Source: Pseudomonadota bacterium (lineage in GTDB: Bacteria; Desulfobacterota; Desulfovibrionia; Desulfovibrionales; Desulfovibrionaceae). From it: a DNA stretch of 64,000 bases. Position 1 is the stretch's first letter; each line of letters begins with the position of its first letter. The position numbers and the translations under genes were made by a program. The stretch spans positions 1 through 64,000 of the forward strand of contig JAHIUW010000023.1 in assembly GCA_018816865.1 (NCBI GenBank), in the 5' to 3' direction. The notes under the pieces were generated by a model, which worked only from the letters and a program-made list of their open reading frames with translations, did not search any database and was not told the DNA's origin. Shown piece by piece: positions 13,040 through 54,640 of this stretch.

Positions 13040-13070
13040 GCTGTCTACCTGTGTTGAATAGAATGTGTTG

Positions 13071-13517: not shown

Positions 13518-13609
13518 GGCCCGTTCGTCTCCTTTTGATGGAATATATAGCGATCACCAAGCGTGGGCCCGGTGATCGCCGTAGGGTGGGCAGTACTGAC
13601 CGGGAACAC

Positions 13610-13954: not shown

Positions 13955-13974
13955 GATTGCCTCCTTTGCTAATG

Positions 13975-14667
13975 TTACGCCCGCACCAGTGGCGCGTGGC
14001 AGTTCGAACATCTTCGTTGCGAGCAGGGGATGCCAGGCACAGCCTCAACCCTTTGTCCGCAGTGTGGGCATCGGCATGAGACCTGTTTCCGGTTCAAGGA
14101 CGATGCCTCCGGCGGTGTGGCGGGTTCCTCGCGCACATTGCCCTCGCCTGGTTCCATGAGTTGACCGCGTCTGTGCGCATGCCTGCCCTGACCCGACCAG
14201 GACTGCCCCCCTCGTCCGAATCTTCCGGCCCAGAGGAGGTTGCCAGCGGTTGGTTGAGAGCCGCGGGTCATGGAAAGCCTCCCGGCGTATCCTGGAACCA
14301 TGAATTGCTGATTGTCGAGTTGGTCGGCCCGCCATGCTGTGATGAGTTCTTCCAGGTCACCCATGAGGAAAGAGTGAACCGTGATGCCTTGCGCGGCAAT
14401 GACGCCGGACAGCTGCCGCGAGATGGCTCCGCACACCAGGACATCCACTCGCCATCTCTGCAACGCGGCGGTGGTGGCGTATGGTGCTTCGGTCGGCATG
14501 CGCACCACGCGGAGTGGTGTTTTGCAACAAGGGTCCTTCGCCACAAGGACGGCCTGCGACGCGACATCAAAGACCGGCGCTATCCGCTCTTCCCAGACGC
14601 TGAAAGCTGCGTTCATGGTGGGGCCTGCTCCTTCTTGCATTGAAAGAGCAGTATCCATGCCAAGCAA
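13975..14667 (-). CDS. NifX/NafY/NifB-type dinitrogenase FeMo-cofactor-binding domain protein (MTH1175-like) with a C-terminal zinc-ribbon extension. Start uncertain.
   Basis: RIAPVFDVASQAVLV...VDVLVCGAISRQLSGVIAAQGITVH matches the Nif_FeMo_cofactor fold. C-terminal CRCPHCG...CSNCH. Confidence 0.65.
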   Translation of the reverse strand: MLGMDTALSMQEGAGPTMNAAFSVWEERIAPVFDVASQAVLVAKDPCCKTPLRVVRMPTEAPYATTAALQRWRVDVLVCGAISRQLSGVIAAQGITVHSFLMGDLEELITAWRADQLDNQQFMVPGYAGRLSMTRGSQPTAGNLLWAGRFGRGGQSWSGQGRHAHRRGQLMEPGEGNVREEPATPPEASSLNRKQVSCRCPHCGQRVEAVPGIPCSQRRCSNCHAPLVRA

Positions 14668-14744
14668 CAGCCCTGCGCCGTTTGTTTCTATTTGGCTGTC
14701 TTTATTGAACTAAAATTGATTTGCAGGAGGGGAATGTCGTTGAT

Positions 14745-14786
14745 GGGTCGCAATGCTGCGACCTTTCGGAGTGAAAGGGTCGCAGT
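14745..14786. promoter_or_regulatory. Array of three alternating GGTCGCA/TGCGACC half-sites between the sigma-54 activator gene and the NifX-like operon. Candidate UAS/operator, with a weak sigma-54 -24/-12-like element overlapping on the minus strand.
   Basis: GGTCGCAatgcTGCGACCtttcggagtgaaagGGTCGCA. On the minus strand aGGtcgcagcaTTGCg has correct GG-N10-GC spacing about 65 nt upstream of the ORF start. Confidence 0.4.
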
Positions 14787-14790
14787 TCTG

Positions 14791-16182
14791 CTACTCGTTC
14801 TCGGGGTTGGGCAAGGCCGAGTTGTTGCCCCGTGGGGGTGATTCGATGCCCAGTTCTTTGATCTTCCGGAACAGGGTGCTTTTGTGAATGCGAAGATCCT
14901 TCGCTGTCTCCAGTCGGTTGCCGCCGGCGCGCTGAAGCGCGTTCAGGATTAGTTGCGCTTCCATGCTCCTCAGCGTCGCGGCCAGACCGAGCGGGGACGG
15001 ACCCAAGGTGGAGGAATCCGGCGTTAAGAATTCTTCGGGCAGGTGACAGGGCTCGATCATCCCCCGATCACAGACGATGAAGGCCCGTTCGATGACATTG
15101 CGCAGTTCTCGAACATTGCCGGGCCAGAAGTGGTAGGTCAGTAAAGCCAGGGTCTCAGGAGCAAGGGCCTCGACTTGCTTGCCCTGGAGTGCGTTGAAAT
15201 GTTGGATGAAATGCATGCATAGCAGGGGAATGTCCTCCTTGCGGCAGCGCAGGGGTGGCAATTCCACTCGGGCTACATCAATCCGGTAGTACAGGTCTTC
15301 GCGGAAACTCCCTTCCTGGACCAGTTCCTCAAGGCGACGGTTCGTGGCGGCGATTATTCGCACATCCGAGGTCACCGATGCGACGCCGCCCAGGGGTTCG
15401 TAGACATGTTCCTGCAGGACCCGCAACAGCCGGACCTGCATGGCCGGACTGATATTGCCCAGTTCATCAAGAAAGAGAGTTCCGCCCGAAGCCAAGGCGA
15501 AACGACCCGGCTTGTCCCTGTGCGCCCCAGTAAAAGCTCCGGCCTTGTAGCCGAAAAGTTCGGACTCAAGCAGAGACTCCGGCAGGGCTCCGCAGTTCAG
15601 CGCCACAAAGGGGGCACCCTTGCGAGGGCTGAGGGCGTGGATGGTGCGAGCGATCAGTTCCTTGCCCGTGCCTGTCTCCCCCTGGATAAGCACGGTGCTG
15701 GAACTGGCGGCGATGGGTTCAAGGGAGGCGAAGATGCGCTGCATCAGCGGACTGCGGCTGACAAGATCGCCAACACGGAATCGTCCCTCGAGTTCGTGGC
15801 GCAGGGCCTCCACTTCGCTCAGATCACGGAAGGTCTCGGCACCTCCGATGACTTCTCCTGCAGCATTGCGCAGGACGGCCGTGGACAAGCTGATGGGAAT
15901 CTGGTTTCCCGAGGCGTCGATGATGTAGCCCGTGCGACCGATCAGGGGCTTGCCGGTGCGCTGGGTTTCGCGCAGACAGCAATGGTCGCCGCACATGGAG
16001 GATCTGAATACTTCCGAACAACGCTTGCCGAGTGCTTCATGGCGGGGGATGCCGGTGATCTCCTCGGCGGCCCGATTGAACGAGAGGATTCGCCAGTCGG
16101 GGTCCACCGTGAACACACCGTCCGAGATGCTTTCCAGGATTGCCTCATACTGGTCGGGTGATGGTATGGGTTTGATGGTCAT
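14791..16182 (-). CDS. Sigma-54-dependent Fis-family transcriptional activator with an N-terminal PAS domain.
   Basis: PAS (SISDGVFTVD). AAA+ sigma-54 interaction domain with GETGTGKE, the GAFTGA motif and ESELFGY. C-terminal HTH. Confidence 0.9.
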   Translation of the reverse strand: MTIKPIPSPDQYEAILESISDGVFTVDPDWRILSFNRAAEEITGIPRHEALGKRCSEVFRSSMCGDHCCLRETQRTGKPLIGRTGYIIDASGNQIPISLSTAVLRNAAGEVIGGAETFRDLSEVEALRHELEGRFRVGDLVSRSPLMQRIFASLEPIAASSSTVLIQGETGTGKELIARTIHALSPRKGAPFVALNCGALPESLLESELFGYKAGAFTGAHRDKPGRFALASGGTLFLDELGNISPAMQVRLLRVLQEHVYEPLGGVASVTSDVRIIAATNRRLEELVQEGSFREDLYYRIDVARVELPPLRCRKEDIPLLCMHFIQHFNALQGKQVEALAPETLALLTYHFWPGNVRELRNVIERAFIVCDRGMIEPCHLPEEFLTPDSSTLGPSPLGLAATLRSMEAQLILNALQRAGGNRLETAKDLRIHKSTLFRKIKELGIESPPRGNNSALPNPENE

Positions 16183-29237: not shown

Positions 29238-29351
29238 CGCACCCCGGCCCTCACGCTGTTCGGCCCTCTGGGCGACACATTGGGCGACAGCCCGACGGGC
29301 ACACAGGCCGACACCCTGGTCGGCAATGATGCCTTCAGGACGCAGAATAAG

Positions 29352-29383
29352 AAACGGGTTGCAGCAGACGCTGCAACCCGTTT
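29352..29383. terminator. Bidirectional intrinsic terminator between the convergent flotillin and radical-SAM genes.
   Basis: AAACGGGTTGCAGC-agac-GCTGCAACCCGTTT: perfect 11-bp stem with A/T tracts on both sides. Confidence 0.8.
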
Positions 29384-29482
29384 CATCTCGTTCCCTGTTC
29401 AGGAAAATTTCTGAATCTCCATGCCACCCAATCCAATGTCCCTTGTCCGGTTTTTCAGCTGTGGCAGGCGGTTGAGGCTGTC

Positions 29483-30499
29483 CTATTCTCCATAGGTCTG
29501 GGGCGGGGCAAGCTGCTCCGGGAAAGATGCGCGCAAGGCCTTGCGGGTCAGGTAGCAGAGGTGGCAGGCGTCCACATAGCCCTGGGCAAAGCCGTGCTCG
29601 CGGTCCAGGCCGTGCTCGCGGTCCAGGCCGTGCTCCTGGGCCAAAGCCGCCGGGCCTCCGCGCAGCAGGGGACCGCAGATCGGGTGCTCCTCCGGGACAT
29701 AGGCGGCCATGATCTCGGTCAGAGGGCGTTCCCAGACATTGCCGATGCAGATGCCCTGGCAGAGGTGCACGAAGCCCAGGGCGTCGATGTGCACGCGCCC
29801 TGGCGCGGCAAAGTCCTCATCCGGGCACTGGCCGAAGCTCTGCCAGTCGGTCAGGGGCAGTCCGCCCGTGAGCTTGTCCACGGCCCGCCCCCGGAAGCGG
29901 ACGTCGCCCCCGACAATGGGCGCGCCCTTCTCCCTGCCCTGGGCAGACGCTTCGGTCACGCAGGGTGGGTCGATGCGAAAGGCATGATTCTGCATCTGCA
30001 GTTCTTGGGCAGCTTGCAGTGCGGCCTTGGCCGGGGAAGGGGTCGCGTCACCGTGATGGAACTCGTCGTCACTGACGTTCAGGATGGTCAACCCGGCCTG
30101 GACCAGCGGTTCCAGCCAGACCTTGGCGTCCTCGCTGTCCTGCGCCCAGTAGCCGTTGCTGATCACCTCGACCTCGAAGCCGAGCTTGTGGGCATATTCG
30201 ATGCCGCGCAGCATGGTGGGGTAGAACAGAAAAGGCTCCCCGCCCTCGATGGAGATGCGACGTACGGTCGTCAGCTCCGCGGCCTGGTCCAGCAGGCGCG
30301 TGAGCTGCGCGAGGGTAAAGGTGCCCTGCGAGCCGGGCGAACAGTGCAGAAAGCAGTGGTCGCACTGATAAAGGCATGTGTAGCTTAAGAGTATGTGTAC
30401 ACCGGTTAGCATGGATATGCCATAACCGATGGTCGGAGCGGATGCAAGGGGGGAGGGGGAAGAGTGAGACGCAGTGTTCTTGCCCAGCGCGGAGTTCAC
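29483..30499 (-). CDS. Radical SAM domain protein. Alternative start at 30412.
   Basis: CLYQCDHC (CxxxCxxC); Gly-rich SAM-binding stretch ISIEGGEPFL. Confidence 0.7.
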   Translation of the reverse strand: MNSALGKNTASHSSPSPLASAPTIGYGISMLTGVHILLSYTCLYQCDHCFLHCSPGSQGTFTLAQLTRLLDQAAELTTVRRISIEGGEPFLFYPTMLRGIEYAHKLGFEVEVISNGYWAQDSEDAKVWLEPLVQAGLTILNVSDDEFHHGDATPSPAKAALQAAQELQMQNHAFRIDPPCVTEASAQGREKGAPIVGGDVRFRGRAVDKLTGGLPLTDWQSFGQCPDEDFAAPGRVHIDALGFVHLCQGICIGNVWERPLTEIMAAYVPEEHPICGPLLRGGPAALAQEHGLDREHGLDREHGFAQGYVDACHLCYLTRKALRASFPEQLAPPQTYGE

Positions 30500-30589: not shown

Positions 30590-32104
30590 CTACTCCACCC
30601 AGTCAAAGGTCCGTTGCACGGCCTTTTGCCAGCCGTGGCAGGCCGCGGCACGGGCCTCGGCCTCCATGGCCGGTTGCCAGGTGCGATCCTCGGCCCAGTT
30701 CTGCCTGAGTTCGTCCAGCCCGCCCCAATAGCCCACGGCCAGCCCGGCGGCATAGGCCGCGCCCAGGCAGGTGGTCTCCGAGACCTTGGGCCGGATCACC
30801 GGCACGTCCAGAATGTCGGCCTGGAACTGCATCAGCAGGTTGTTGGCCACCATGCCGCCGTCCACCTTGAGGCTGGTCAGGTCTGTGCCCGAGTCGCGGT
30901 TCATGGCCTCAACGATGTCCCGGGTCTGGTAGGCGTTGGCCTCCAGCACGGCGCGGGCGATGTGGTTCTTGGTGGCGTAGCGGGTCAGGCCGCACATCAC
31001 CCCGCGGGCGTCGGGCCGCCAGTAGGGCGCGAACAGGCCCTGGAACGCGGGCACGATGTACACCCCGCCGTTGTCGCCCACCTTGGCGGCCAGCTCCTCC
31101 ACCTCCGCCGAACTCTGGATCAGGCCCAGATTGTCGCGCAACCACTGCACCAGGGCCCCGGCAATGGCGATGGAGCCCTCCAGGCAATAGCAGGGCTTCT
31201 GGCCGCTCATCTGGTAGGCCACGGTGGTGATCAGGCCCTGGGTGGAGGGCACGGGCGTGTTGCCGGTGTTCATCAGCAGGAAGCAGCCGGTGCCGTAAGT
31301 GTTCTTGGCCTGGCCCACGTCGAAGCAGGCCTGACCCACCAGGGCCGCCTGCTGGTCGCCGAGCGCCCCGCACACGGGCACCCGCGCCCCCAGCGGTCCG
31401 TCCTCCATGGTCGGGCCCCAGGATTCGCCGTCGGACGATGGCACGATGCGCGGCAAACAGTCGCGCGGGATGCCAAGCTCGCCCAGGATGGCGTTGTCCC
31501 AGGTCAGGGTCGCCAGGTCCATGAGCATGGTCCGGCTGGCGTTGGTCACGTCGGTCACGTGCGCGCCGCCCTTGGGCCCGCCGGTCAGCCACCAGATGAT
31601 CCAGGTCTCCATGGTGCCGACAATGGCCGTGCCGTCGGCCACGGCGTGGGCCGCCTCGGGCACGTTGTCCAGAATCCATTTGATTTTTGGGCCGCTGAAA
31701 TAAGTGGCCACGGGCAGGCCCGTGGTGGCGCGGAAGCGGTCCTGCCCGCCGTTGGCGATGAGCTGTTTGCAGATCTCGTGGGTGCGAGTGCACTGCCAGA
31801 CGATGGCGTTGTAGAAGGGCTTGCCCGTGCGGCGGTCCCAGATCACGGTGGTCTCGCGCTGGTTGGTGATGCCGATGGCCGCCAGGTCCGAGCCTTTGAG
31901 GCCCGCCTTGCGCAATGCACCCTGGATGACCTCGCCGGTGTTCTTCCAGATCTCCATGGGGTCGTGCTCGACCCAGCCGGGCTTGGGGAAGATCTGCTTG
32001 TGTTCCTTCTGGTCCACGGCCTTGATGCGGCCCTTCTTGTCGAAGATGATGAAGCGGCTGCTGGTGGTGCCCTGGTCCACCGCGCCGATGTACTGCTGTG
32101 CCAT
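30590..32104 (-). CDS. glpK: Glycerol kinase.
   Basis: Full-length FGGY kinase with hallmark motifs ([32 protein letters not shown]). Confidence 0.95.
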
Positions 32105-32212: not shown

Positions 32213-33229
32213 TCATCCTTCATGCCCCAAGGACGAGGGATGGACAAGGGGGGCGGGCAGTTCGGTCAACCCCAACTCCTCGGGCGAGAGTCCGATGCCC
32301 AGGCCGATGAGCTGCGCCGCCAGCATCGCCGGGGGCATGGCTCCTTGTGGCTGGTCTTCGGCCAGTTGCGTGGCTGCAGAAGGCCAGGGTCGTGCGCCGG
32401 GTTGGTCATCGTTGGCGTCAACAGTGGGGCTGCCCTGAGCCTGTGTATCGCGTGCTTCAGGAGCCGTGACCTGTTGTGCGATCGCCGTGTCGAGGGGCGG
32501 GCTGGTCTGGTTCTCATCCTGTTGCGCGAACTGCATCTGGCAATAGGTGCAGGCCGTGACCAGCAAGTGCGCCCCGGCGTCGCGGGCATCAATCAGCTTG
32601 CGGGCCTTCAGGGCCAGGGAGAGCTTGTCGCGCTTGCCGCGCAGCGGGTGCCCGCAGCATTCCAGGCGCAGGGCCCAGGGCACGGGCATGGCCCCCACCC
32701 GGCGCAGCAGGCGCTCGAAGACGCTGGGGTTCAGGGGGTCGTCGAAATTCGTGACATTGCCCGGGCGCAGAGCATGGCAGCCGTAATGTGCGGCCACGCG
32801 CAATCCGCAGAGCCGTTCCCCGGCGCGGGCCGCCAGTTCGTCGGGCTGCAGGTCCCGGTCCAGGACCGTGAGCAGGTGCAGGACCTGCGGCTCCTCGGGC
32901 AGGACCAGACCTTCCTCGGCCAGGGTCGAGGCCACCAGGGAGCGCAACTCGCGGTTTTCGCGCAGCCAGTAGGCCGCGTGCTTCAAGGACCCGAAACAGC
33001 ACTTGCAGGGGGTCATGATGGCCAGTCCGGCTTGCTGGGCCAGGGCCAGATTGCGCCCGGCGGACTGGGCCCAGGCCTCGAAACTGCGGTGGCGCAGTGG
33101 CTCGCCGCAGCAGTTGAACTCCAGGGGTGTCAGCCCGATGTCCAGGGCCGCGCACAGGGCGGTCACGGCCTGACCGTAGGCGGGCAGATGGTGGGGGATC
33201 TTGCAGCCCGGAAAATAGGCGTAGCTCAT
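32213..33229 (-). CDS. CCG-domain (HdrB/GlpC C-terminal-like) cysteine-rich protein. Start at MSYAYFPGC.
   Basis: Two CCG domains: YFPGC...NCCGEP and HYGCH...ECCGHP. Confidence 0.8.
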   Translation of the reverse strand: MSYAYFPGCKIPHHLPAYGQAVTALCAALDIGLTPLEFNCCGEPLRHRSFEAWAQSAGRNLALAQQAGLAIMTPCKCCFGSLKHAAYWLRENRELRSLVASTLAEEGLVLPEEPQVLHLLTVLDRDLQPDELAARAGERLCGLRVAAHYGCHALRPGNVTNFDDPLNPSVFERLLRRVGAMPVPWALRLECCGHPLRGKRDKLSLALKARKLIDARDAGAHLLVTACTYCQMQFAQQDENQTSPPLDTAIAQQVTAPEARDTQAQGSPTVDANDDQPGARPWPSAATQLAEDQPQGAMPPAMLAAQLIGLGIGLSPEELGLTELPAPLVHPSSLGHEG

Positions 33230-35118
33230 GCCTCGTCCCCCTTGGTTTCGGGCTCGGGTTGGGTCCCGGCAAGGGTGCTGGGCATCGGCTGGATCGTCGG
33301 CGCATCTGCGGTTCGGGACATGGCTCTGGCTGCGTGGTCCCCTCTGGCAGCGGACCACGCATCGCGCCCGGTTTCAACGCTGCGCTCACCCCCGGTTGCA
33401 TGTCCGGTCCCGGCTGTCGCTCCGGTCTCGGCCCAGGCCTCGGGGTGTTCGCGCAGCCGCGCCCAGGCCAGGGTGCGCAGCTCGTAGAGCACGTCGGCCA
33501 CACGCACGCCCTGGGGGCAATTTTCCTGGCACTTGTAGCAGGTCACGCAGCTCCAGACCATTTCCGCGCCCAGGGCCTCTTCCTTCAGGCCCATGCGCAG
33601 CATGTTCATGATCTGTTGCGGGGTCAGGTCCAGCTCGCGGGCCGGGGCCTGGCTGGCGGCCACCACCGGGCAGACGCTGGTGCAGGTGGTGCACTGGATG
33701 CAGCCCCAGAACGAGGCGCGGTTGTCGCAGAGCTTCACGCTGCGCGCGGCCTCGACCCTGGCCGGGGGCAGGCTGCGGAAGGTCGCGGCCCAGTCGCGCA
33801 GGGGACGCTGGGCGAGAACCAGGTGGGGCTCGCCCGGGCCGGTCTCGCGCAGCCGGGTCCTGGACTGCATCCATAGGTCCTGAAGATCGATGCCCGAGGG
33901 GCAGAGGGTGGTGCAGCGTAGGCATTCGGTGCAGATCTGGCTGCCCTCGGCAAAGGCCCGTAGGGCCGGGCCACGCAGCCGGGCGGCGGCGTGACGCTTG
34001 AGGGAAGAAAGCTTTTCCGAGGGCAGGATGTCCGGCGTGCCCAGGGCCAGGAAGGCCGGGGCCACGGAACAGTGTTCGCTGCAGGCCCCGCAGTGGGTGC
34101 AGGCGTCCAGGCCCAGGGGCCGCAGCACCGCGGCCAGGGCCGGGGGCTTCGTGCCTGTGTCGCTGCTGGTCCTGCCCTGGCGCAGGGTCAGGTTGAGCGG
34201 GGCGGACAAGGGGTGCATGAACTTGCCCCAGGGCAGCAGCGCCAGCCCCAGAAAGCACAGGCCCACGTGCAGATAGTAGAAAAGCAGGTCCGCGCGCAGA
34301 TTGTTCAGGGCGTCGCCCAGCGGGGCCATGGTCTTGGCCAGGGGGTAGGACACAAAGGCCGAGGTGGGCCGCGAATGGCAGTAGACGCAGCTGCCCTCGT
34401 GGGCCTCGCGTCCTTGGGCCAAGGCCTCGTCCGAGTGCGGCGGCGGCATGAGGAAGATCACCCCGTATTCTTCGGACCACAGCAGGCGCAGGTCGTTGAT
34501 TTCGGCCTCGTCGTCCGTGCCCAGGTACTGCTCGACCATGGAGTCGAAGACCTGGGGCGAGATGATCTTCGCGGCCTCCAGGCCCAATCCCGAGATCATG
34601 ATCCCGCCCAGCAGCGCGATCAGCGCCCAGTCCTGGGCGCCCGTGGTGCGCCTGACCCGGGGCAGCATCCTGCGTCGCCACACGGCCACAGCCAGCCCTC
34701 CCAGGGTCAGGACGCCGAACAGGTTGCGTAACCACTGGTAGGGATCAAGGGCCGGGGCGTAGCCCGCGAACCAGCGCTCGCTGGTCAGTTCGTCCAGGCC
34801 GTGCATGATCAGCAGGCCCATGAACCCGGCGAAGATGGCCAGATGCATCAGCCAGCGCTCCACGCCGTTACCCGCGATACGCCGTTGCAGCAGTCCGTCC
34901 ATGACCAGGGCGCGGCCCCAGCGAGCGGCGCGGTGCGGCGCAAGATTGCGCACCAGGCTTCGGGCCAGGGCGCTGAGTCGAGCGGCCATGCCTGGAGGCG
35001 GTCCCGGGGCGATGGTCAGCCGCAGCCAGGACAGGGCTTTGGCACCCAGACCCAGGCCCAGAGCCGTCAGGGACAGCGCAAGCCCCGTGTCGAAGAAGTC
35101 CATGCCGCCCCAGATCAT
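33226..35118 (-). CDS. Membrane-anchored Fe-S oxidoreductase: an HdrE/NarI-like polytopic N-terminus fused to a 2x[4Fe-4S] ferredoxin domain (HdrC/GlpC N-terminal-like).
   Basis: Five or six TM helices, then CTHCGACSEHC, CTECLRCTTLCP, CIQCTTCTSVCP and CVTCYKCQENCP; start overlaps the CCG-protein gene. Confidence 0.8.
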   Translation of the reverse strand: MIWGGMDFFDTGLALSLTALGLGLGAKALSWLRLTIAPGPPPGMAARLSALARSLVRNLAPHRAARWGRALVMDGLLQRRIAGNGVERWLMHLAIFAGFMGLLIMHGLDELTSERWFAGYAPALDPYQWLRNLFGVLTLGGLAVAVWRRRMLPRVRRTTGAQDWALIALLGGIMISGLGLEAAKIISPQVFDSMVEQYLGTDDEAEINDLRLLWSEEYGVIFLMPPPHSDEALAQGREAHEGSCVYCHSRPTSAFVSYPLAKTMAPLGDALNNLRADLLFYYLHVGLCFLGLALLPWGKFMHPLSAPLNLTLRQGRTSSDTGTKPPALAAVLRPLGLDACTHCGACSEHCSVAPAFLALGTPDILPSEKLSSLKRHAAARLRGPALRAFAEGSQICTECLRCTTLCPSGIDLQDLWMQSRTRLRETGPGEPHLVLAQRPLRDWAATFRSLPPARVEAARSVKLCDNRASFWGCIQCTTCTSVCPVVAASQAPARELDLTPQQIMNMLRMGLKEEALGAEMVWSCVTCYKCQENCPQGVRVADVLYELRTLAWARLREHPEAWAETGATAGTGHATGGERSVETGRDAWSAARGDHAARAMSRTADAPTIQPMPSTLAGTQPEPETKGDEA

Positions 35119-36554
35119 TTGCCGCTCCTGTTGGTACGGGCACTGATTATCTGGCTCTGAATCAAAAAACTATGGCTGTTCAGGCTCTGGCTCGATTCAC
35201 TGCCGTGCGGTGCAGTGCCGTCAGTTGGAATCTCTTCAGGGGTCGCCCGGCTTGGGGGCGCTGGTTTCACGGCGGTGGGCTTCAGGGCCTCCCGGGCCGA
35301 GGCCACGGCCTGGAAGGCCGTGGTGATGGCCAGCCCGGCCCCGCATTTCTGGCGCATCCAGTCCTGGTGGGCCAGGATGGACCCGGCCGCAAACAGTCGG
35401 GGATGCACGGCTTTGCCGTGGTCATTCAGCGGACGCAGGGCGTTGTCCGTCTCCACGCCCGTGTTGTTCAGTTCGTGTCCCCGGGGGTCGTAGAATTCCG
35501 GGCTATGCCAGGAGTCGCGCTTGCCGGGCTGGTACAGCGGAAGGTCGAAGACCGCCTCGCGCACCCGGCCCCGGTCGGCCACAAGCCCCTTGCCGAAGAA
35601 ACGGCCCGTGGCCAGGATCACCGCTTTGGCCTGGATCGTGGTCTCGATGCGCTCCTTGCCCAAACCGAGGCGAAAGCCGCCGTCGGGCAGGGGCTGTTGG
35701 GAGAGGACCATGCGCTGGGAATAGAGATGCACCCCGCGCCCGGGCAGGCCCCGGTCAAAGGCCGCGCGCAGCCGCGAACCGGCCAGGGACGGTGGCAGGG
35801 TGGGGATCTCGAAGACCCGCGCGCCCAGGAGGGTCTCCAGATCCGCGCGCACGACCTCGGCCTGTTCGCGGCCCAGCAGTGCCGGGAAACCGACGAATCG
35901 GGCCTCGGCCAGATGCGGGCGCACGGTATCGGCCAGGGCGCGGCGCAAGGCGGGTTCGTGCAGGGCCGTTGCCATGTGCTCGGGATACAGCTCCTCCTTC
36001 CAGCCGGGGAAGGGCACCCGCAGGGTTCGCAGCCCGGGCCAATCGGCCCCGGCCACCTCGCGGATCTGCACGGCGGAAAAGCCTTTCAGGCCCTGGAAGT
36101 CCACCAGCAGGCAGGGAGCCTTGCCGCTCAGGGCCTCGGCCCCGGCCCACATGGAGCGCGGGGCGCGGAAGGTGTGCTTGGCCGTGCCCATGGCCGTCAG
36201 GATGCGGGTGTTCTTCCTGGCGTGGCCCTCCATGGGCATGCCCATGTCGCCCAGAAAGGCGCAGAATTCGTCCATGGCCCGAGCCATGGTTCCGGAATCA
36301 AGGCGGGCATAGGGGTGCTGCGGGCTGTGCTCGCGCAGGGCCTCGATGCAGGCCCAGGGGTCGTCCCAGACGCGGCCTTCTTCCAGGGGATGCACGGCCA
36401 GGAGGTCGATCAACCCGGTGCTGAAGTCGATGCCGCCCACGGACCCGGCCAGGGCCACGGACAGCCCCCGGTTTGATGCGAAGAGAGCGGCGGCCATGCC
36501 CGCCATGCCCGCGCCCATGACCATCAGGTCGAAGGTGGTTTTGTCGCGGCTCAT
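35115..36554 (-). CDS. glpB: Anaerobic glycerol-3-phosphate dehydrogenase subunit B.
   Basis: FDLMVMGAGMAGMAAAL FAD motif plus GlpB-like overall sequence; coupled to glpA. Confidence 0.85.
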   Translation of the reverse strand: MSRDKTTFDLMVMGAGMAGMAAALFASNRGLSVALAGSVGGIDFSTGLIDLLAVHPLEEGRVWDDPWACIEALREHSPQHPYARLDSGTMARAMDEFCAFLGDMGMPMEGHARKNTRILTAMGTAKHTFRAPRSMWAGAEALSGKAPCLLVDFQGLKGFSAVQIREVAGADWPGLRTLRVPFPGWKEELYPEHMATALHEPALRRALADTVRPHLAEARFVGFPALLGREQAEVVRADLETLLGARVFEIPTLPPSLAGSRLRAAFDRGLPGRGVHLYSQRMVLSQQPLPDGGFRLGLGKERIETTIQAKAVILATGRFFGKGLVADRGRVREAVFDLPLYQPGKRDSWHSPEFYDPRGHELNNTGVETDNALRPLNDHGKAVHPRLFAAGSILAHQDWMRQKCGAGLAITTAFQAVASAREALKPTAVKPAPPSRATPEEIPTDGTAPHGSESSQSLNSHSFLIQSQIISARTNRSGK

Positions 36555-38293
36555 GGTGTGTCCTCTTCGGATAGTGGCCCGCCCGGAACGATGCTGTCCC
36601 CCGCGGACCCGTGCGAGCCGGTCTTATCCGGGAGATGCTCTGCTGCGGTGCCTGTCAACGGGGGTGTCTGTGTCCCGTCTTCCTTCAACGAGGGGTCTTC
36701 AGAGGCTGGGTCATGCGCTGCTTGGGCTGTGGGCTCGGGTCCGGGGGGGGCGAGTTCCAGCTCGAAGACCCCGCAGTGCAGGGCCTCCTGTAATTCGGCC
36801 TGCATCAGGTCCGTGCCCCAGAGCACCGGGGCCTTGCCGCGCCAGCGGCGCTGGATGAAGCGCTTGAGTTCGTGGATGCCCTGGTCCCCGTCGAGTTGCC
36901 CGATGTCGTAGAGGTGCGAGGTCACGCGCGGGCCGCAGAATCCGCCCTGACACGGGCCCTTGCCCATCCGGCTGCGCAGGCCGATGGCCGTGAGGGCCGA
37001 ACGCCCGCGCATCTCGCCCAGTTCATCGACAATGGCCGTCACGGTGTCGCGCGAGACCATCTCGCATTCGCAGAGGATCACGTCGTTGCGCCGCAGGCGG
37101 TCCACCCAGGCCCGGGCCGATTCCCCCGCTCGGGTCCAGCGGCCGTTGGCCGACGGGGGCAGCGGTTCCGTGCGCGTCAGGCAGGGGGCGCTCACGTTCA
37201 GCTTGCGGCAGACCAGGTCCGTGGCCCGCTCGGCCATCAGGCGGTAGGTGGTCAGCTTGCCGCCGGTGATGGTCAGGCAGTTGTCCACCCCGAAGCGGGC
37301 ATGGTCGATCAAGTCGAAGCCCCGGCTCACGGCGCGATCGTCTCCGGCCTCGCCGTGGGAGACCAGGGGCCGGACCCCCGCATAGGCGCGCATGTAGCGG
37401 GTGCTGTCCAGCACCGGGATCATGGCCCGGGCGTCGTCGATCATGCGGTCCACCTCGGCCACGCTGGGCCGGCAGAGATCCGGGGAGTCGATGCGCACCG
37501 AGGTGGTGCCCAGGATGGAGACCGTGCCCCCGGGCACCAGGATGTCGGCGTCCGTGGGCGGGCGCAGGCGGTTGATGGCGCGCCGGGTGATGCGATCCTG
37601 GGTGATGGCCAGGGTGCCTTGGGAACAGTGGACATTGATTTCGGCCCCGGCCATGCGAGCCAGGGGGCCGGACCAGGCCCCGGCGGCGATGATCACCTGC
37701 TCGGTCTGGATGGAAAAGGGCTGGCCCGTGGTCTCGTCCATGAGCTGCACGCGGGTGATGCACGCCCCGTTACGCTCAAAGGACAGCACGCGGGCGTTGC
37801 GCCGGACCCGCGCCCCTAGGCTCAGGGCCTGGGCCAGATTGTCCAAGGAGAGCATGAACGGGTCCACGCTGGCGTCGTCCACCTCGAAGGCGGCGAACAC
37901 CCGCTCGCACAGGGCCGGCTCCAACTCCCTGGCCCGGGCCGGGTCGATTTCGCGGCAGGGCACATGGTTTTGTTCGCAGAGGACCGGAAATTGATGCGCA
38001 AAGGTCTCGTCGTCACCGTCCACGGCTACGAACAGCCCGCCGCAGTCGTCGATGCAGTGCGGGGCCAGGCGCTTCAGGAGCGCGCCCTCGTCGCGGCATT
38101 CGATTGCGGCCTCGGGATCCGAGAGTACGTAGCGTGCGCCGCTGTGCAGCAGACCGTGGTTGCCGCCCGAGGCCCCGGCATTGACGTCGCGTTGTTCGAC
38201 CACCAGGCAGGACACGCCGCGCAGGGCGAGATCCCTGGCGATGCCGGTGCCCGTGGCCCCTGCGCCGATGATCAGTACGCTGGTTTGCATCAT
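36551..38293 (-). CDS. glpA: Anaerobic glycerol-3-phosphate dehydrogenase subunit A (FAD, BFD-like [2Fe-2S]).
   Basis: VLIIGAGATGTGIARDLALRG dinucleotide fold; BFD-like CECEMV...CQGGFC; GlpA-like length and order. Confidence 0.9.
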   Translation of the reverse strand: MMQTSVLIIGAGATGTGIARDLALRGVSCLVVEQRDVNAGASGGNHGLLHSGARYVLSDPEAAIECRDEGALLKRLAPHCIDDCGGLFVAVDGDDETFAHQFPVLCEQNHVPCREIDPARARELEPALCERVFAAFEVDDASVDPFMLSLDNLAQALSLGARVRRNARVLSFERNGACITRVQLMDETTGQPFSIQTEQVIIAAGAWSGPLARMAGAEINVHCSQGTLAITQDRITRRAINRLRPPTDADILVPGGTVSILGTTSVRIDSPDLCRPSVAEVDRMIDDARAMIPVLDSTRYMRAYAGVRPLVSHGEAGDDRAVSRGFDLIDHARFGVDNCLTITGGKLTTYRLMAERATDLVCRKLNVSAPCLTRTEPLPPSANGRWTRAGESARAWVDRLRRNDVILCECEMVSRDTVTAIVDELGEMRGRSALTAIGLRSRMGKGPCQGGFCGPRVTSHLYDIGQLDGDQGIHELKRFIQRRWRGKAPVLWGTDLMQAELQEALHCGVFELELAPPGPEPTAQAAHDPASEDPSLKEDGTQTPPLTGTAAEHLPDKTGSHGSAGDSIVPGGPLSEEDTP

Positions 38294-38560: not shown

Positions 38561-39409
38561 GTGCAGGAGTGGTGGTTGTCGAGTCATGTAGATGCGGACA
38601 GGTCCTTTGCTGGAGGCGGCAGGGCCGTTTCCCAAGGCAAGCATGCGGCGGTCAGGCGGCGGCACGAAAAGATCCTGGAACTGATCCAGGTGGGCGGGTT
38701 CGTGGCCGTGGGCGATCTGGCCGGGCGATTTTCCGTGACGCCCCAGACCATGCGTCGGGACATCAACATCCTGGCCGAACAGGGGTTGTTGCAGCGTTTT
38801 CATGGCGGGGTGGGGCCCGCGCTGTCCACGGAGAACGTGGCCTACACCGATCGCAAGATCCTCTGCCGCGACGAGAAGCGGCGCATCGCCCGGGACATGG
38901 CCCAGTTCATCCCCCCCAAATCCTCGTTGTTCATCAACATCGGCACCACCACCGAGGAAGTGGCTCAGGCCTTGATGAACCACGAGCGTCTGCGGGTGAT
39001 CACCAACAACCTGAACGTGGCCAAGATCCTGACCGGGCACTCCAATATCGAGCTCATCGTGGCCGGGGGCGTGGTTCGGCACCGCGACGGCGGGATCGTG
39101 GGCGAGGCCGCGGCGGACTTCATCCGCCAGTTCAAGGTGGATTTCGGGATCATCGGCATCAGCGGCATCGACATGGACGGCACCCTGCTGGACTACGACT
39201 ACCGCGAGGTCCGCGCGGCCAGGGCCATCATCGAGAATTCGAGAAAGGTCTTTTTGGCCACGGACCATACCAAGTTCGGGCGCAACGCCATGGTTCGCCT
39301 GGGCCATCTTTCCGAGATCGACGCATTGTTCACCAACAGGATGCCCCCGGCGGCGCTGGAGGCCGTCCTGAAGGAAGCGGAGGTCGCCCTGCATGTGGCG
39401 GGCGGGTAG
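38561..39409 (+). CDS. glpR: DeoR-family transcriptional regulator (GlpR-like). Start uncertain.
   Basis: HTH ILELIQVGGFVAVGDLAGRFSVTPQTMRRDINILAEQGLLQRFHGG, then a DeoR C-terminal sugar-phosphate-binding domain. Confidence 0.85.
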   Translation: MQEWWLSSHVDADRSFAGGGRAVSQGKHAAVRRRHEKILELIQVGGFVAVGDLAGRFSVTPQTMRRDINILAEQGLLQRFHGGVGPALSTENVAYTDRKILCRDEKRRIARDMAQFIPPKSSLFINIGTTTEEVAQALMNHERLRVITNNLNVAKILTGHSNIELIVAGGVVRHRDGGIVGEAAADFIRQFKVDFGIIGISGIDMDGTLLDYDYREVRAARAIIENSRKVFLATDHTKFGRNAMVRLGHLSEIDALFTNRMPPAALEAVLKEAEVALHVAGG

Positions 39410-39510: not shown

Positions 39511-40593
39511 GTGGGGCTGAGACTCACGGATATCAGTAGAACCGTCGGCCAGGAGATGCATCTTGCGGATGTGAATCTTGAGCTCAAGACGGGCTCGCGG
39601 TATATCATTCTGGGGCGGACCCTGGCCGGCAAGACCTCGCTGTTGCGGATCATGGCCGGGTTGGATCGCCCGGGCACGGGGAAGGTGCTGGCGGACGACA
39701 AGGACGTGACCGGGGTCTCCGTGCGCAAGCGCGATGTGGCCATGGTCTACCAGCAGTTCATCAACTATCCCTCGCTGACCATCTATAAAAACATCGCCTC
39801 TCCCCTGAAGATCGCCGGAGTGTCCAGGGCCGAGGTCGACCGCCGTGTGCGCGAGGTCGCCAGGACCCTGCAGCTTGATCCCTTGCTGGATCGGCTGCCG
39901 GCCGAGCTGTCGGGCGGGCAGCAGCAGCGCACGGCCATTGCCCGGGCGCTGGTCAAGGAATCGCATCTGCTGCTCCTGGACGAACCCCTGGTCAACCTGG
40001 ACTACAAGCTGCGCGAGGAACTGCGCGAGGAATTGCAGCACATCTTCATGGAGCGCGAATCCATCGTGGTCTACACCACCACCGAGCCCACCGAAGCCCT
40101 GATGATGGGCGGCAACGTCGTGGTCATGGACCAGGGGCGCATCCTGCAGATCGGCAAGACCACCGAGGTCTTCAACCACCCGCGGAACATGAAGGTGGCC
40201 GAGGTCTTCAGCGATCCGCCCATGAATTTCATCCCGGCTCGGATCGTGGACGGCCAGGCCCGCCTGAGCGCCTGCATGCAGGCACCTCTGGTGGGCGGTT
40301 TGCAGGGGCTGACCCCCGGTGAATACACCTTTGGCGTACGAGCCAGCCGGGTGTTCCTGAACCAGCGGCACGAGTCGGACATCAGCCTGTGCGGAGAGGT
40401 TGCGCTGAGCGAGATCAACGGCTCGGAGACCTTCATCCACGTGGGCTGCGGCAGGATCAAGCTGGTGGCTCAGGAGGACGGAATCCACGGGATCAAGGGC
40501 GGCAGCAACCTGCCCCTGTTCATCAACCCTGAGGACTTTTACGTCTTTGACGCGAACGGCGATCTGCTGATTGCCCCGACCGCGATGGACTAA
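39511..40593 (+). CDS. ABC ATPase paralogue with a degenerate Walker A (GlpS-like); first of two ATPases in a glycerol-type ABC importer.
   Basis: GRTLAGKTS in place of GxxGxGKST. LSGGQQQR and LLLDEP retained. MalK-like C-terminal domain. Confidence 0.8.
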   Translation: MGLRLTDISRTVGQEMHLADVNLELKTGSRYIILGRTLAGKTSLLRIMAGLDRPGTGKVLADDKDVTGVSVRKRDVAMVYQQFINYPSLTIYKNIASPLKIAGVSRAEVDRRVREVARTLQLDPLLDRLPAELSGGQQQRTAIARALVKESHLLLLDEPLVNLDYKLREELREELQHIFMERESIVVYTTTEPTEALMMGGNVVVMDQGRILQIGKTTEVFNHPRNMKVAEVFSDPPMNFIPARIVDGQARLSACMQAPLVGGLQGLTPGEYTFGVRASRVFLNQRHESDISLCGEVALSEINGSETFIHVGCGRIKLVAQEDGIHGIKGGSNLPLFINPEDFYVFDANGDLLIAPTAMD

Positions 40594-40606
40594 GCGGAGG
40601 CCGACA

Positions 40607-41692
40607 GTGGCGCGAATCGACCTGGTAGAGGTGGCGCACAGCTACCACCCCCGGCCCAAGGGCCCTGAAGATTTCGTCTTCAAGCGCATCCACACCACCT
40701 GGGAGGACGGCGGGGCCTATGCCCTGCTCGGCCCTTCCGGATGCGGCAAGACCACCATGCTCAACCTGATCTCGGGCCTGCTGGCCCCGTCGCACGGCAA
40801 GATCCTCTACGACGAGCGCGATGTGACCCGCCTGCCGCCCGAGCAGCGCAACATCGCCCAGGTCTTCCAGTTCCCGGTGCTCTACGACACGATGAGCGTC
40901 TACAACAATCTGGCCTTCCCCCTGCGCAACCGCGGAATGAGCGAGACCGAGGTCAGGGAGCGCGTGGGCATCGTGGCCGAGATCCTGGGCCTGTCCGCCG
41001 ACCTGGACAAGCGTGCGGCCGGGCTGGCCGCCGATGCCAAGCAGAAGATATCGCTCGGTCGGGGGTTGGTGCGCAGCGACGTGGCGGCCATTCTGTTCGA
41101 CGAGCCCTTGACCGTCATCGATCCGCACCTGAAGTGGCAACTTCGCAGGAGTCTGAAGGAGATCCACAAGGAATTCGGGCTGACCATGATCTATGTGACC
41201 CACGACCAGGTGGAGGCCATGACCTTCGCCGACAAGGTCGTGATCATGTACGACGGTGAACTGGTCCAGACCGGGGCCCCCGACGAGCTGTTCGAGACAC
41301 CGGAACACACCTTTGTGGGCTATTTCATCGGCAGTCCGGGCATGAATTTCATGGACTGCACCCTGGAGGGTGGCGTGGCCCACGCCAATGGTTCAGCGAT
41401 CCCCGTGGACGCCGAGTACGCGGCCCGGGCACAGGCCACGGGCAGTTCCCTGAAGATGGGCATCCGCCCCATGTACCTGGAGGTGCGCGAGTCCGAGGTC
41501 ACGGGCAGCGTCCCGGGCCGGGTGACCCATGTCGAGGATCAGGGGCACTGCAAGATCGTCACGATCAAGCTGGGCGAATTGACCCTCAAGGCGCGCATCA
41601 TGGACGGCCGGGCCATTCCCGCCGGGAGCTGCCACCTGGTGTTTCCGCCTGAAAAGATCAAATTCTTCGCTGATGACCGGCTGGTGAAATAA
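40607..41692 (+). CDS. Canonical ABC ATPase (GlpT/UgpC/MalK-like). GTG start with GGAGG RBS; the track ORF starts at 40571.
   Basis: GPSGCGKTT, LGRGLV, FDEPL; C-terminal TOBE/MalK regulatory domain. Confidence 0.85.
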   Translation: MARIDLVEVAHSYHPRPKGPEDFVFKRIHTTWEDGGAYALLGPSGCGKTTMLNLISGLLAPSHGKILYDERDVTRLPPEQRNIAQVFQFPVLYDTMSVYNNLAFPLRNRGMSETEVRERVGIVAEILGLSADLDKRAAGLAADAKQKISLGRGLVRSDVAAILFDEPLTVIDPHLKWQLRRSLKEIHKEFGLTMIYVTHDQVEAMTFADKVVIMYDGELVQTGAPDELFETPEHTFVGYFIGSPGMNFMDCTLEGGVAHANGSAIPVDAEYAARAQATGSSLKMGIRPMYLEVRESEVTGSVPGRVTHVEDQGHCKIVTIKLGELTLKARIMDGRAIPAGSCHLVFPPEKIKFFADDRLVK

Positions 41693-41703
41693 CGGAGACC
41701 GAT

Positions 41704-42573
41704 ATGGAAAAATGGGAAAGCAACAAGGCCTGGTTCCTGATCCTGCCCGTCATCGTCATCGTGGCCTTTTCAGCCATCATCCCCCTGATGACGGTGGTCA
41801 ACTACTCGGTCCAGGACATCTTCGGACCCGGGCAGCGGATGTTCATCGGCACCGAATGGTTCAAGGATGTCCTCTCGGACACGCGCCTGCACGACGCCTT
41901 GGGGCGTCAGCTGATGTTCTCGGGTCTGGTGCTGCTGATCGAGATGCCGCTGGGGGTGCTCATCGCCCTGGGCATGCCCAAGAAGGGCTGGGGCTCGTCC
42001 CTGTGTCTGGTGCTGCTGGCCCTGCCGCTGCTCATCCCCTGGAACGTCATTGGCACCATCTGGATCATCTTCACCCGGCCCGACATCGGGCTGTTCGGCG
42101 CGACCATCAATTACCTGGGACTGAGTTTCGACCATACGGCCCATGCCCTGGATGCCTGGGTCACGGTGATGCTGATGGAGGTCTGGCACTGGACGCCGCT
42201 GGTGGCTTTGTTGGCCTACGCGGGCCTGCGGGCCATCCCCGACGCCTTCTATCAGGCCGCCAAGATCGACGGTGCGTCCCGCCTGGCCGTGTTTTGCTAC
42301 ATCGAACTGCCCAAGATGCGCGGGGTGCTGACCATCGCGCTGCTCTTGCGGTTCATGGACAGTTTCCTGATCTATGCCGAGCCCTTTGTGCTCACTGGCG
42401 GCGGCCCCGGCAACGCCACCACCTTCTTGTCCATCTATCTGGTCAAGGTCGCGGTGGGGCAGTTCGACCTGGGCCCGGCGGCGGCCTTCTCGCTGATCTA
42501 CTTCCTGATCGTGCTGCTGTTCTGTTTCCTGTTCTATCAAGCCCTGCAGTCCGTCGGGAAGGGGGAGCGCTGA
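41704..42573 (+). CDS. ABC importer permease (GlpP/UgpA-like).
   Basis: Six-TM MetI family permease. Confidence 0.85.
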   Translation: MEKWESNKAWFLILPVIVIVAFSAIIPLMTVVNYSVQDIFGPGQRMFIGTEWFKDVLSDTRLHDALGRQLMFSGLVLLIEMPLGVLIALGMPKKGWGSSLCLVLLALPLLIPWNVIGTIWIIFTRPDIGLFGATINYLGLSFDHTAHALDAWVTVMLMEVWHWTPLVALLAYAGLRAIPDAFYQAAKIDGASRLAVFCYIELPKMRGVLTIALLLRFMDSFLIYAEPFVLTGGGPGNATTFLSIYLVKVAVGQFDLGPAAAFSLIYFLIVLLFCFLFYQALQSVGKGER

Positions 42574-42574
42574 G

Positions 42575-43378
42575 ATGAAAATCAAGAAGAAATACTTCGT
42601 CCTGGGCTTCTATCTGCTGTTGTTGATGCTGCCCATCTACTGGATGCTGAACATGAGTCTGCGGACCAATGCGGATATCCTGGGCCATTTCGCCCTGTAC
42701 CCCAGCGAGCCCACCCTGGCCAACTATATGAAGATCTTCGGGGACCCGTCGTGGTATTCGGGCTATATCAATTCCATCATCTACGTCAGCATCAACACCG
42801 CGATCTCGTTGTTCACGGCGCTGCCCGCGGCCTACGCCTTTTCGCGCTACCGTTTCATCGGCGACAAGCACGTCTTCTTCTGGCTGTTGACCAACCGCAT
42901 GGCCCCGCCGGCGGTCTTTCTGCTGCCGTTCTTCCAGCTCTATTCCACCTTCGGGCTCATCGACACCCACATCGCCGTGGCCCTGGCCCACTGTCTGTTC
43001 AACGTGCCCCTGGCGGTCTGGATCCTGGAAGGCTTCATGTCCGGGGTGCCCAAGGAGATCGACGAGACCGCCTTCATCGACGGTTACAGCTTCCCGCGCT
43101 TCTTCCTGACGGTTTTCATCCCGCTGATCCGGGCCGGCATCGGCGTGACCGCATTCTTCTGCTTCATGTTCAGCTGGGTGGAGCTGCTCCTGGCGCGGAC
43201 CCTGACCACCACCAACGCCAAGCCCATCGCCGCCATCATGACCCGCACCGTGAGCGCCTCGGGTTTGGACTGGGGCCTGTTGGCCGCGGCGGGGATCCTG
43301 ACAATCGTGCCCGGGGCATTGGTGATCTGGTTCGTGCGCAATCATCTGGCCAAGGGCTTTGCCCTGGGCCGGGTCTAA
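42575..43378 (+). CDS. ABC importer permease (GlpQ/UgpE-like).
   Basis: Six-TM MetI family permease; translationally coupled. Confidence 0.85.
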   Translation: MKIKKKYFVLGFYLLLLMLPIYWMLNMSLRTNADILGHFALYPSEPTLANYMKIFGDPSWYSGYINSIIYVSINTAISLFTALPAAYAFSRYRFIGDKHVFFWLLTNRMAPPAVFLLPFFQLYSTFGLIDTHIAVALAHCLFNVPLAVWILEGFMSGVPKEIDETAFIDGYSFPRFFLTVFIPLIRAGIGVTAFFCFMFSWVELLLARTLTTTNAKPIAAIMTRTVSASGLDWGLLAAAGILTIVPGALVIWFVRNHLAKGFALGRV

Positions 43379-43396
43379 CCCCCAAGGAGCACCATC

Positions 43397-43675
43397 ATGC
43401 AACTCGAATGGATGGCCTGGACTCCGGTGACCGCGGGGTTCTTCATCGTGATCGTGGTCATGCTCATCGGCATGACAACCTGGGAGGTCGTTTCCCCCAA
43501 TATCGAACGCAAGGGCTTCTTGCCCATCGCCACCACCCGTGGGGATCGCCTGTTCATCGGGCTGCTTGGCAGCGCCTATATCCATCTGGCCTGGATCGGC
43601 CTGACGGATCTGAGTCTTTGGATCGCCACTGTCATCTCGGTTGGGTTCATGGTCGGTCTGATGCGTTGGGGCTAG
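43397..43675 (+). CDS. DUF2160-family small membrane protein (GlpU-like).
   Basis: 92 aa, two TM helices; WEVVSPNIERKGFLPIATTRGDRLFIGLL is typical of DUF2160 proteins found in glycerol ABC loci. Confidence 0.65.
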   Translation: MQLEWMAWTPVTAGFFIVIVVMLIGMTTWEVVSPNIERKGFLPIATTRGDRLFIGLLGSAYIHLAWIGLTDLSLWIATVISVGFMVGLMRWG

Positions 43676-43766
43676 GCCCCGACGCCATGCAGAGCCGACG
43701 AAGAGGGACAGGGGGTCCTGTTGTTAACGGGAGTCTGTACGAAACGTGCAAACGAGGAGGATGATC

Positions 43767-45506
<1,740 letters not shown>

Positions 45507-54623: not shown

Positions 54624-54640
54624 GGTTCGCCTCCTGGGTC

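Follow-up and report, generated by a model that had tools for sequence, protein, structure and literature searches.

Glycerol is a common substrate of sulfate-reducing bacteria and of syntrophic communities and, to our knowledge, the way in which its electrons enter the membrane of these organisms has never been measured. In Escherichia coli, glpC holds the place after glpB in the glpABC operon, and its product is a single peripheral protein of 396 amino acids (aa) with no transmembrane (TM) helices and no haem. Here we analyse a 64-kb stretch of a Desulfovibrionaceae genome (contig JAHIUW010000023.1 of assembly GCA_018816865.1, positions 1 to 64,000; below, the window) in which two genes, given the working names X and Y, follow glpB. 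With a probability of about two in three, we read GlpA, GlpB, X and Y as one membrane-bound glycerol-3-phosphate (G3P):menaquinone oxidoreductase, with X and Y taking over the function of GlpC.

The X-Y system is most readily explained as a relative, split in two and linked to GlpAB, of EtfD of Mycobacterium smegmatis (PDB 9OJN) and of the EMO of Syntrophus aciditrophicus. As described in PMC13083937 and in a preprint (bioRxiv 10.64898/2026.08.18.745454; below, the EMO preprint), both proteins are single chains that conduct electrons from the ETF flavin through non-cubane and then cubane clusters to haem b and (methyl)menaquinone. A NarI-like five-helix haem b domain is followed in both by HdrC-like and HdrB-like modules, the order also found in X-Y, and a wire of this kind, from a cytoplasmic flavoprotein to menaquinone, is what we propose here. 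The donor differs, being EtfAB there, whereas glpAB and not etfAB adjoins X in 55 of 61 loci. EMO and EtfD are one chain instead of two polypeptides, and hold two cubane clusters, in contrast to the two dicluster domains of X with a predicted four. Only one TM2 histidine is present in the EMO, but both are in X, which in addition bears a periplasmic insert of ~90 aa with an invariant CxxCH that is unreported for EMO or EtfD.

An association of such genes with glpAB has been described before. Strittmatter et al. (2009; PMC2702500) list 'HdrF' of Desulfobacterium autotrophicum HRM2 with TM, HdrC and HdrB domains. They report two genes for HdrF1/F1' and a position of both hdrF1 and hdrF2 in clusters with glpAB, and they propose electron transfer from GlpAB. 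That work is a genome annotation, which we match to X and Y by the architecture and context given there. More recently, heterodisulfide reductase-like genes were drawn between glpK and glpBA of Pseudodesulfovibrio and Desulfomicrobium, with reference to Santos et al. 2018 (PMC11505543, 2024); the layout of the glycerol clusters figured there is that seen here, and the ABC transporter in our window matches their glpSTPQ(U)V cluster. A term search for 'GlpA' in the available text of the EMO preprint gave no occurrence. Since the glpAB-X-Y operon is already in the literature, what an earlier reading of this DNA (the original prediction) had found is a confirmation and not a discovery. New here is an invariant CxxCH with an invariant Met in a predicted periplasmic loop of X, which suggests a covalently bound haem c and is absent from the original prediction; CxxCH is not mentioned in the available passages of PMC2702500 or of the EMO preprint.

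Two other groups of enzymes invite comparison. HdrDE of Methanosarcina, DsrMK, HmcEF and TmcBC likewise pair a NarI/HdrE-type cytochrome b with an HdrD-type iron-sulfur (FeS)/CCG protein at the membrane. There, however, one protein unites the dicluster and CCG domains, a subunit of its own provides the cytochrome b, and electrons run from quinol to a disulfide or trisulfide, opposite to the direction proposed for X-Y. QmoC, the top NCBIfam match of X (E 8e-20), combines a NarI-like membrane domain and an HdrC-like dicluster domain in one chain, but its FeS part comes first whereas the order is reversed in X (NF038018 71.6 bits, cut-off 300), and it works with QmoAB and APS reductase.

The glpA-glpB-X-Y operon and its relation to GlpC

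GlpA and GlpB of the window pass the cut-offs for equivalogs of these GlpABC subunits (Table 1); GlpA also gives a weak BFD-like [2Fe-2S] match beside its Pfam match to DAO. Divergently transcribed beside glpA are genes for GlpR and a glycerol-type ABC transporter. Stop and start codons overlap as ATGA at the glpA/glpB, glpB/X and X/Y junctions, and an AGGAG lies 6 nucleotides (nt) 5' of the X ATG. Because of the identities of the glp genes and their glycerol regulon context, and because ATGA overlaps join four genes whose order is conserved, we read their products as one complex. Open reading frames and equivalog scores agree with the original prediction that the genes are real, in their coordinates and in the order glpA-glpB-X-Y-glpK, and the neighbouring GlpR and transporter genes bear out the link to glycerol regulation. 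Its statement that all six genes are coupled by overlaps was wrong: ATGA occurs at the three junctions named, the Y stop is separated from the glpK ATG (32104) by 108 nt, with an AGGAG of its own before glpK, and the spacing between glpK and the radical SAM gene behind it is at least 90 nt.

The linkage extends well beyond this genome. A distribution scan of one genome per species retrieved 80 X loci; the counts that follow use those with enough flanking DNA. A relative of X is encoded in at least 284 species genomes, its hosts belonging to Desulfovibrionales, Desulfobacterales, Syntrophobacteraceae and Spirochaetota/Leptospirales, together with some metagenome-assembled genomes (MAGs) labelled Betaproteobacteria. 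The gene directly before X is glpB in 55 of 61 informative loci, and in another a single inserted gene separates the two; both glpA and glpB are present in 54 of the 61. Y follows X directly in 72 of 73 loci, and glpK comes after X-Y in 33 of 65. The order glpA-glpB-X-Y is thus strongly conserved across phyla, in Desulfobacterota as well as Spirochaetota.

GlpC itself is colinear with parts of both new proteins. The dicluster domain of E. coli GlpC (aa 2-80 of the annotated K-12 record) aligns with X 466-548 at 33% identity (E 1e-11), and its CCG half (aa 164-393) with Y 4-252 (E 1e-6). Therefore, the second FeS domain of X plus Y correspond to a split GlpC/HdrD, and the NarI domain and the first FeS domain are, to judge from the alignments, additions in front of it. 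On the GlpC equivalog TIGR03379, X scores 60.5 and Y 21.8 bits, far below the cut-off of 279.9. When the 64-kb window was searched by tblastn with X, Y and E. coli GlpC, X and Y were the only GlpC-like products and no canonical glpC was found; no fused GlpC-like gene lay within 8 kb in 79 of the 80 related loci, and the one present in the remaining locus does not adjoin glpAB. It is because of this colinearity, and because neither the window nor the surroundings of the related loci yielded a glpC, that we place X and Y in the role of GlpC, as the original prediction had done.

An HdrC/HdrB fusion (53092..54540) was considered as a further GlpC candidate and rejected, being part of an hdrA cluster and scoring as HdrB/SdhE-like. 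It belongs to a second Hdr-like cluster on the minus strand (53092..61698), apart from the glp genes, which also encodes a 1141-aa protein resembling the 'HdrL' type of Db. autotrophicum.

X and Y might alternatively be an independent respiratory module that merely stands beside glpAB, while a canonical GlpC encoded elsewhere serves GlpAB. This genome was inspected over 64 kb, and a few X-Y pairs do exist without glpAB, both of which leave room for such an arrangement. Against it stand the four-base start/stop overlaps that join glpB to X and X to Y, the adjacency of glpB and X across phyla (55/61 loci), the colinearity of X domain 2 and Y with GlpC, and the lack of a fused GlpC-like gene within 8 kb in 79/80 loci. 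We consider mere neighbourhood highly improbable.

Predicted electron path through Y and X

The membrane domain of X belongs to PF02665 (Nitrate_red_gam; 35.2 bits against a gathering score of 22.9, with partial coverage of aa 131-184), and a PDB profile search with X reaches NarI at E 0.002-0.004. By hhalign, X 126-316 aligns with E. coli NarI 89-219 (E 3.3e-5), which puts H284 on H187 and H302 on H205, two haem ligands of NarI, where the ligand pairs are H56/H205 and H66/H187. In an alignment of 120 X homologues (42-85% identity), H106, H284 and H302 are present in all and H92 in 119. H92 and H106 in TM2, with H284 and H302 in TM5, are therefore candidate ligands of two b haems; the TM2 pair, which falls outside the hhalign alignment, is spaced by 14 residues versus 10 in NarI (H56/H66). 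By family membership and these histidines, X is predicted to be a dihaem cytochrome b of the NarI/HdrE type.

Five TM helices are predicted, with the N-terminus outside and the C-terminus inside. Family-wide net charges fit this topology, which is that of NarI and EMO and conforms to the positive-inside rule: +4.4 for loop 1-2, +4.1 for loop 3-4 and +2.0 for the segment after TM5 on the inside, as against -0.4 for the N-terminus, -2.8 for loop 2-3 and -7.7 for loop 4-5 on the outside. An AlphaFold2 (AF2) model of X (pLDDT 87.6, pTM 0.82) has five long helices in its membrane part and, behind them, FeS domains that are helical as well. In Foldseek its top match is M. smegmatis EtfD (9ojn; E 6.3e-6, probability 1.00, 545 aligned columns, query-normalised TM-score 0.39); HdrC chains and NarI come next, NarI with a probability of 0.98-1.00 but an E of 0.2-0.7.

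X can start at either of two codons, ATG 35118, which shares bases with the glpB stop and follows an AGGAG at a distance of 6 nt, or ATG 35103 (M6); most homologues begin at the position matching M6 (MxFF...). 

Behind the membrane domain, Pfam finds 4Fe-4S dicluster matches in two separate stretches of X. Four CxxCxxCxxxC motifs (aa 340-350, 396-406, 473-483 and 524-534), with all 16 Cys invariant in the 120 homologues, therefore define two dicluster domains and four predicted [4Fe-4S] clusters. Domain 1 gives weak or partial NCBIfam matches to the N-terminal ferredoxin domain of DsrK/HmcF/TmcB and to SdhB, whereas domain 2 matches HdrC (8rvv_C) at E 1e-12 by sequence and E 2.6e-16 by profile search. 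Y carries CCG matches in two stretches (PF02754, 75.6 bits), and its aa 1-235 align with HdrB (8rvv_B, aa 1-239; E 4.9e-38) with all ten cluster Cys (5 + 5) matched, so that, on its sequence, Y is a full HdrB homologue with its CCG ligands complete. It scores well below the cut-offs of the CoB-CoM heterodisulfide reductase equivalogs (TIGR03288 165.5 bits, cut-off 345; NF041780 58 bits, cut-off 450), and as equivalogs QmoC, HdrC, HdrB, DsrK, TmcB and HmcF were all rejected for X or Y, every score being far under its cut-off.

The original prediction was right about a 630-aa X with a polytopic HdrE/NarI-like domain and about a Y with two CCG domains (338 aa from its ATG), and the histidines described above agree with its suggestion of cytochrome b-type helices. 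It had given X a single 2x[4Fe-4S] domain, which has to be corrected to two. The pair is better termed an HdrE-like domain with two HdrC-like domains plus an HdrB-like protein than HdrD plus HdrE. Homology, structure prediction and synteny also support its reading of a membrane-anchored HdrDE/DsrMK-like module that would wire G3P to the quinone pool, a function that we infer.

Glycerol would be taken up by the adjacent ABC transporter and phosphorylated by GlpK, and G3P would then be oxidised in the cytoplasm on the GlpAB flavoproteins. By analogy with EMO/EtfD, GlpAB would dock on Y or X. The two non-cubane clusters of Y, which are of the HdrB type, would receive the electrons and hand them to the four cubane [4Fe-4S] clusters in the dicluster domains of X, from which they would reach menaquinone through the proximal and the distal haem b of the NarI-type five-helix domain. 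We propose a haem b wire because X is homologous to NarI with aligned ligands and because four His and 16 Cys of X and ten Cys of Y are conserved, and we propose menaquinone as its end because the X model best matches EtfD and the EtfD/EMO structures show such a wire. The analysis establishes which genes are present, their domain content, the conservation of ligands, the synteny and the structural likeness to EtfD, NarI and HdrB/HdrC. That the proteins form a complex, that the cofactor sites are filled, which way electrons flow and to which acceptor, and on which side of the membrane quinone is reduced are inferred.

The G3P/dihydroxyacetone phosphate couple lies at about -190 mV and menaquinone at about -74 mV; the reduction of menaquinone would therefore be exergonic. 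Several points speak against the scheme. An exergonic reduction of menaquinone does not need a TM domain with two haems, and EtfD of M. smegmatis uses one (PMC13083937). A simple quinone reductase leaves the invariant periplasmic CxxCH unexplained. Thiol/disulfide chemistry is possible, too, as Y has kept the complete ligand set of the catalytic HdrB clusters. In five of the 61 informative loci (L012, L020, L031, L032 and L077), where X occupies roughly 8000-9700, the 8 kb upstream of it contain no glpAB; the module is therefore not exclusive to G3P oxidation. Finally, we found in the literature no biochemical study of any member of the glpAB-X-Y family.

On this analysis, a large group of anaerobes has, in place of GlpC, a module of the same build as the EMO/EtfD wire whose structure was recently solved. 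If GlpAB-X-Y does reduce menaquinone as proposed, the EMO principle extends from fatty acids to glycerol. The GlpC-type 'CCG' domain, whose function the EMO preprint calls 'less defined', would gain a concrete and testable role: electrons would enter an FeS-haem wire there.

The CxxCH loop of X

The loop between TM4 and TM5 of X is, by the hhalign comparison, ~55 aa longer than its NarI counterpart. It is folded with high confidence in the AF2 model and reaches a pLDDT of 93.6 when modelled alone; the loop-only model gave no Foldseek match. Its CxxCH, directly after helix 230-244, and M194 are present in 120/120 homologues. Of the 80 genomic loci, 77 retain the full set of 24 residues (CxxCH, M194, four His and 16 FeS Cys) and the other three are truncated or mis-framed; the His, Met and CxxCH are kept in 62/64 full-length representatives at 29-45% identity. 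The topology prediction places the loop in the periplasm, the side on which haem c is attached. When the loops of 33 members were compared with Pfam, all matches were sub-threshold and most were to cytochrome c families (Cytochrome_CBB3 in 21/33, Cytochrom_C in 10/33, Cytochrom_C1 in 5/33).

These features suggest, tentatively, that the NarI-type domain of X is a b/c hybrid with two b haems and a covalent haem c on CxxCH, for which Met194 would be the distal ligand. We think it somewhat doubtful and, its independent support being weak, keep the covalent third haem as a hypothesis. Such a haem may be an exit to periplasmic cytochromes that links cytoplasmic G3P oxidation to periplasmic carriers; alternatively, it may correspond to the 'twin haem' stacked at the distal quinone site of the Syntrophus EMO. 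The two-haem domain and the invariant CxxCH together pose an energetic question, namely whether the system runs a reverse loop coupled to the proton-motive force (pmf) for H2 or formate production or plainly reduces menaquinone.

An exit of this kind would make X a b-b-c trihaem wire: electrons from G3P would cross the membrane, aided by the membrane potential, and leave through the loop haem c to the periplasmic cytochrome c3 network, a hydrogenase or a formate dehydrogenase, instead of or alongside menaquinone reduction. This would permit syntrophic or fermentative oxidation of glycerol with H2 or formate as product. The invariance of CxxCH and Met194, also among distant relatives, fits such export, as do the predicted periplasmic position of the negatively charged loop, the retention of both the proximal and the distal His pair, and the fact that all listed hosts of X are diderm lineages. 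According to bioRxiv 10.64898/2026.08.18.745454, moreover, the S. aciditrophicus EMO shows that the family is able to run a pmf-driven reverse loop. However, the candidate Met precedes CxxCH, unlike in class I cytochromes c, where it comes after; the Pfam matches, all sub-threshold, are driven by the motif; and no gene for a partner cytochrome is linked. Export is thus an unlikely alternative to menaquinone reduction, which we prefer.

Relatives without glpAB and neighbouring genes

The membrane domain of X defines a compact family: phmmer against 1.84 billion cluster representatives gave 289 matches at E<=0.001 and 88 at <=1e-30. Among the five loci without glpAB, Y follows X in L012, L031, L032 and L077, and L020 ends before the position of Y. 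In L031 the X-Y pair is followed by NuoF-like (11649-13541) and HdrA-like (13556-16831) genes. Three relatives (P0155, P0191 and P0218) are single chains of 711-716 aa in which the same CxxCH-bearing membrane domain as in X is joined to one dicluster and two CCG domains. These adjoin not glpAB but DsrE-DsrE-DsrH-TusA genes, or GcvH-like (possibly LbpA) and LplA-like genes, a context reminiscent of sulfur-oxidising sHdr systems and not of glycerol metabolism. The X-type membrane module thus recurs in enzymes whose probable substrates are sulfur carriers or lipoyl proteins. If the third haem is real, a b/c module reused in single-chain HdrD-like proteins near TusA/DsrE/LbpA-type genes would represent a class of membrane anchor, hitherto unrecognised, on which Hdr-like enzymes are built.

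Because the membrane module occurs in sulfur-carrier and lipoyl contexts, we retain a thiol/disulfide role of Y as a minor rival. X-Y would then run in the direction of HdrDE/DsrMK, with electrons from menaquinol or GlpAB reducing, at Y, a disulfide or persulfide of a protein or cofactor, for example on DsrC, TusA-type carriers or lipoamide, so that G3P oxidation would feed sulfur metabolism and not the quinone pool. The end-to-end alignment of Y with catalytic HdrB, ten Cys included, the likeness of X FeS domain 1 to DsrK, HmcF and TmcB, and the genes beside the single-chain relatives can all be read in this way. In contrast, the glpAB-X-Y operon also occurs in MAGs of Spirochaetota and Leptospirales, which are not expected to be sulfate reducers, and no sulfur-carrier gene is linked to it in the window. 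GlpC, too, has a CCG domain and is without a known disulfide substrate; non-cubane clusters of this type merely relay electrons in EMO/EtfD, and a like role has been proposed for them in SdhE (bioRxiv 10.64898/2026.08.18.745454). A reductase acting on sulfur carriers therefore appears quite improbable, and relay of electrons to menaquinone the better reading.

Table 1. Features of the glp locus, of the second Hdr-like cluster and of the single-chain relatives of X. Positions are those of the window unless a locus is named.
Feature	Position	Strand	Description
glpA	36551..38293	minus	580 aa; TIGR03377 559.2 bits, cut-off 552.8; Pfam DAO
glpB	35115..36554	minus	second flavoprotein subunit, 479 aa; NF003725 566.7 bits, cut-off 345
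X	33226..35118	minus	630 aa; NarI-type membrane cytochrome domain and two [4Fe-4S] dicluster domains ('HdrF1-like')
X membrane domain	34183..35118	minus	aa 1-312, five TM helices; Pfam PF02665, hhalign vs NarI
X TM4-TM5 loop	34288..34566	minus	aa 185-277, ~90 aa, predicted periplasmic; net charge about -8
X M194	34537..34539	minus	codon of the candidate distal ligand; invariant
X CxxCH	34375..34389	minus	C244-V-Y-C247-H248, haem c attachment motif; directly after helix 230-244
X FeS domain 1	33838..34113	minus	aa 336-427; C340xxCxxCxxxC350 and C396xxCxxCxxxC406P
X FeS domain 2	33466..33723	minus	aa 466-551, HdrC-like; C473xxCxxCxxxC483P and C524xxCxxCxxxC534P
Y	32213..33229	minus	338 aa from ATG; HdrB-like, two CCG (non-cubane cluster) domains
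glpK	30590..32104	minus	glycerol kinase; TIGR01311 740 bits, cut-off 590
Radical SAM gene	29483..30499	minus	downstream of glpK; Pfam Radical_SAM
glpR	38561..39409	plus	DeoR-family repressor, divergent from glpA; NF008154 331.7 bits, cut-off 331
ABC transporter, glycerol-type	39511..45506	plus	divergent; Pfam ABC_tran, BPD_transp_1, SBP_bac_1
ABC transporter ATPases	39511-40593, 40571-41692	plus	
ABC transporter permeases	41704-42573, 42575-43378	plus	
ABC transporter solute-binding protein	43746-45506	plus	
HdrC/HdrB fusion	53092-54540	minus	second Hdr-like cluster
1141-aa protein	54641-58066	minus	second Hdr-like cluster; NAD(P)-binding/glutamate-synthase-like N-terminus and HdrA-like part
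513-aa FeS protein	58085-59626	minus	second Hdr-like cluster
HdrA	59695-61698	minus	second Hdr-like cluster
P0191	L081 45-2186		single-chain relative
P0218	L082 1738-3888		single-chain relative
P0155	L083 757-2892		single-chain relative

The six minus-strand genes from glpA to the radical SAM gene may form one transcript. The sole strong terminator-like hairpin (29384..29351, 15-bp stem) lies 3' of the radical SAM gene and none lies between that gene and glpK; a scan for sigma-70 promoters across 29.3-39.6 kb gave no match. The radical SAM protein shows weak YydG/viperin-like matches, and we set its gene aside as a part of the system because none of the 80 related loci holds a match to it.

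The X protein is identical to that of a MAG labelled 'Proteobacteria bacterium', and its nearest named relative is from Desulfovibrio ferrophilus (79% identity). The longest open reading frame of Y extends to 33358. All four coupled proteins contain Pro/Ala/Glu/Thr-rich, non-conserved segments of 55-75 aa that are predicted to be disordered. In GlpA (aa ~515-580), GlpB (aa ~425-479) and X (aa 558-630; 33229..33447) they form C-terminal tails that reach the ATGA overlap with the next gene, and in Y a low-complexity insert of ~60 aa (aa ~236-299); most homologues lack these segments. Elsewhere in the window, positions 4001..16000 have a G+C content of 0.56-0.60 versus 0.63-0.69 in the flanks, and this region may be of different origin.

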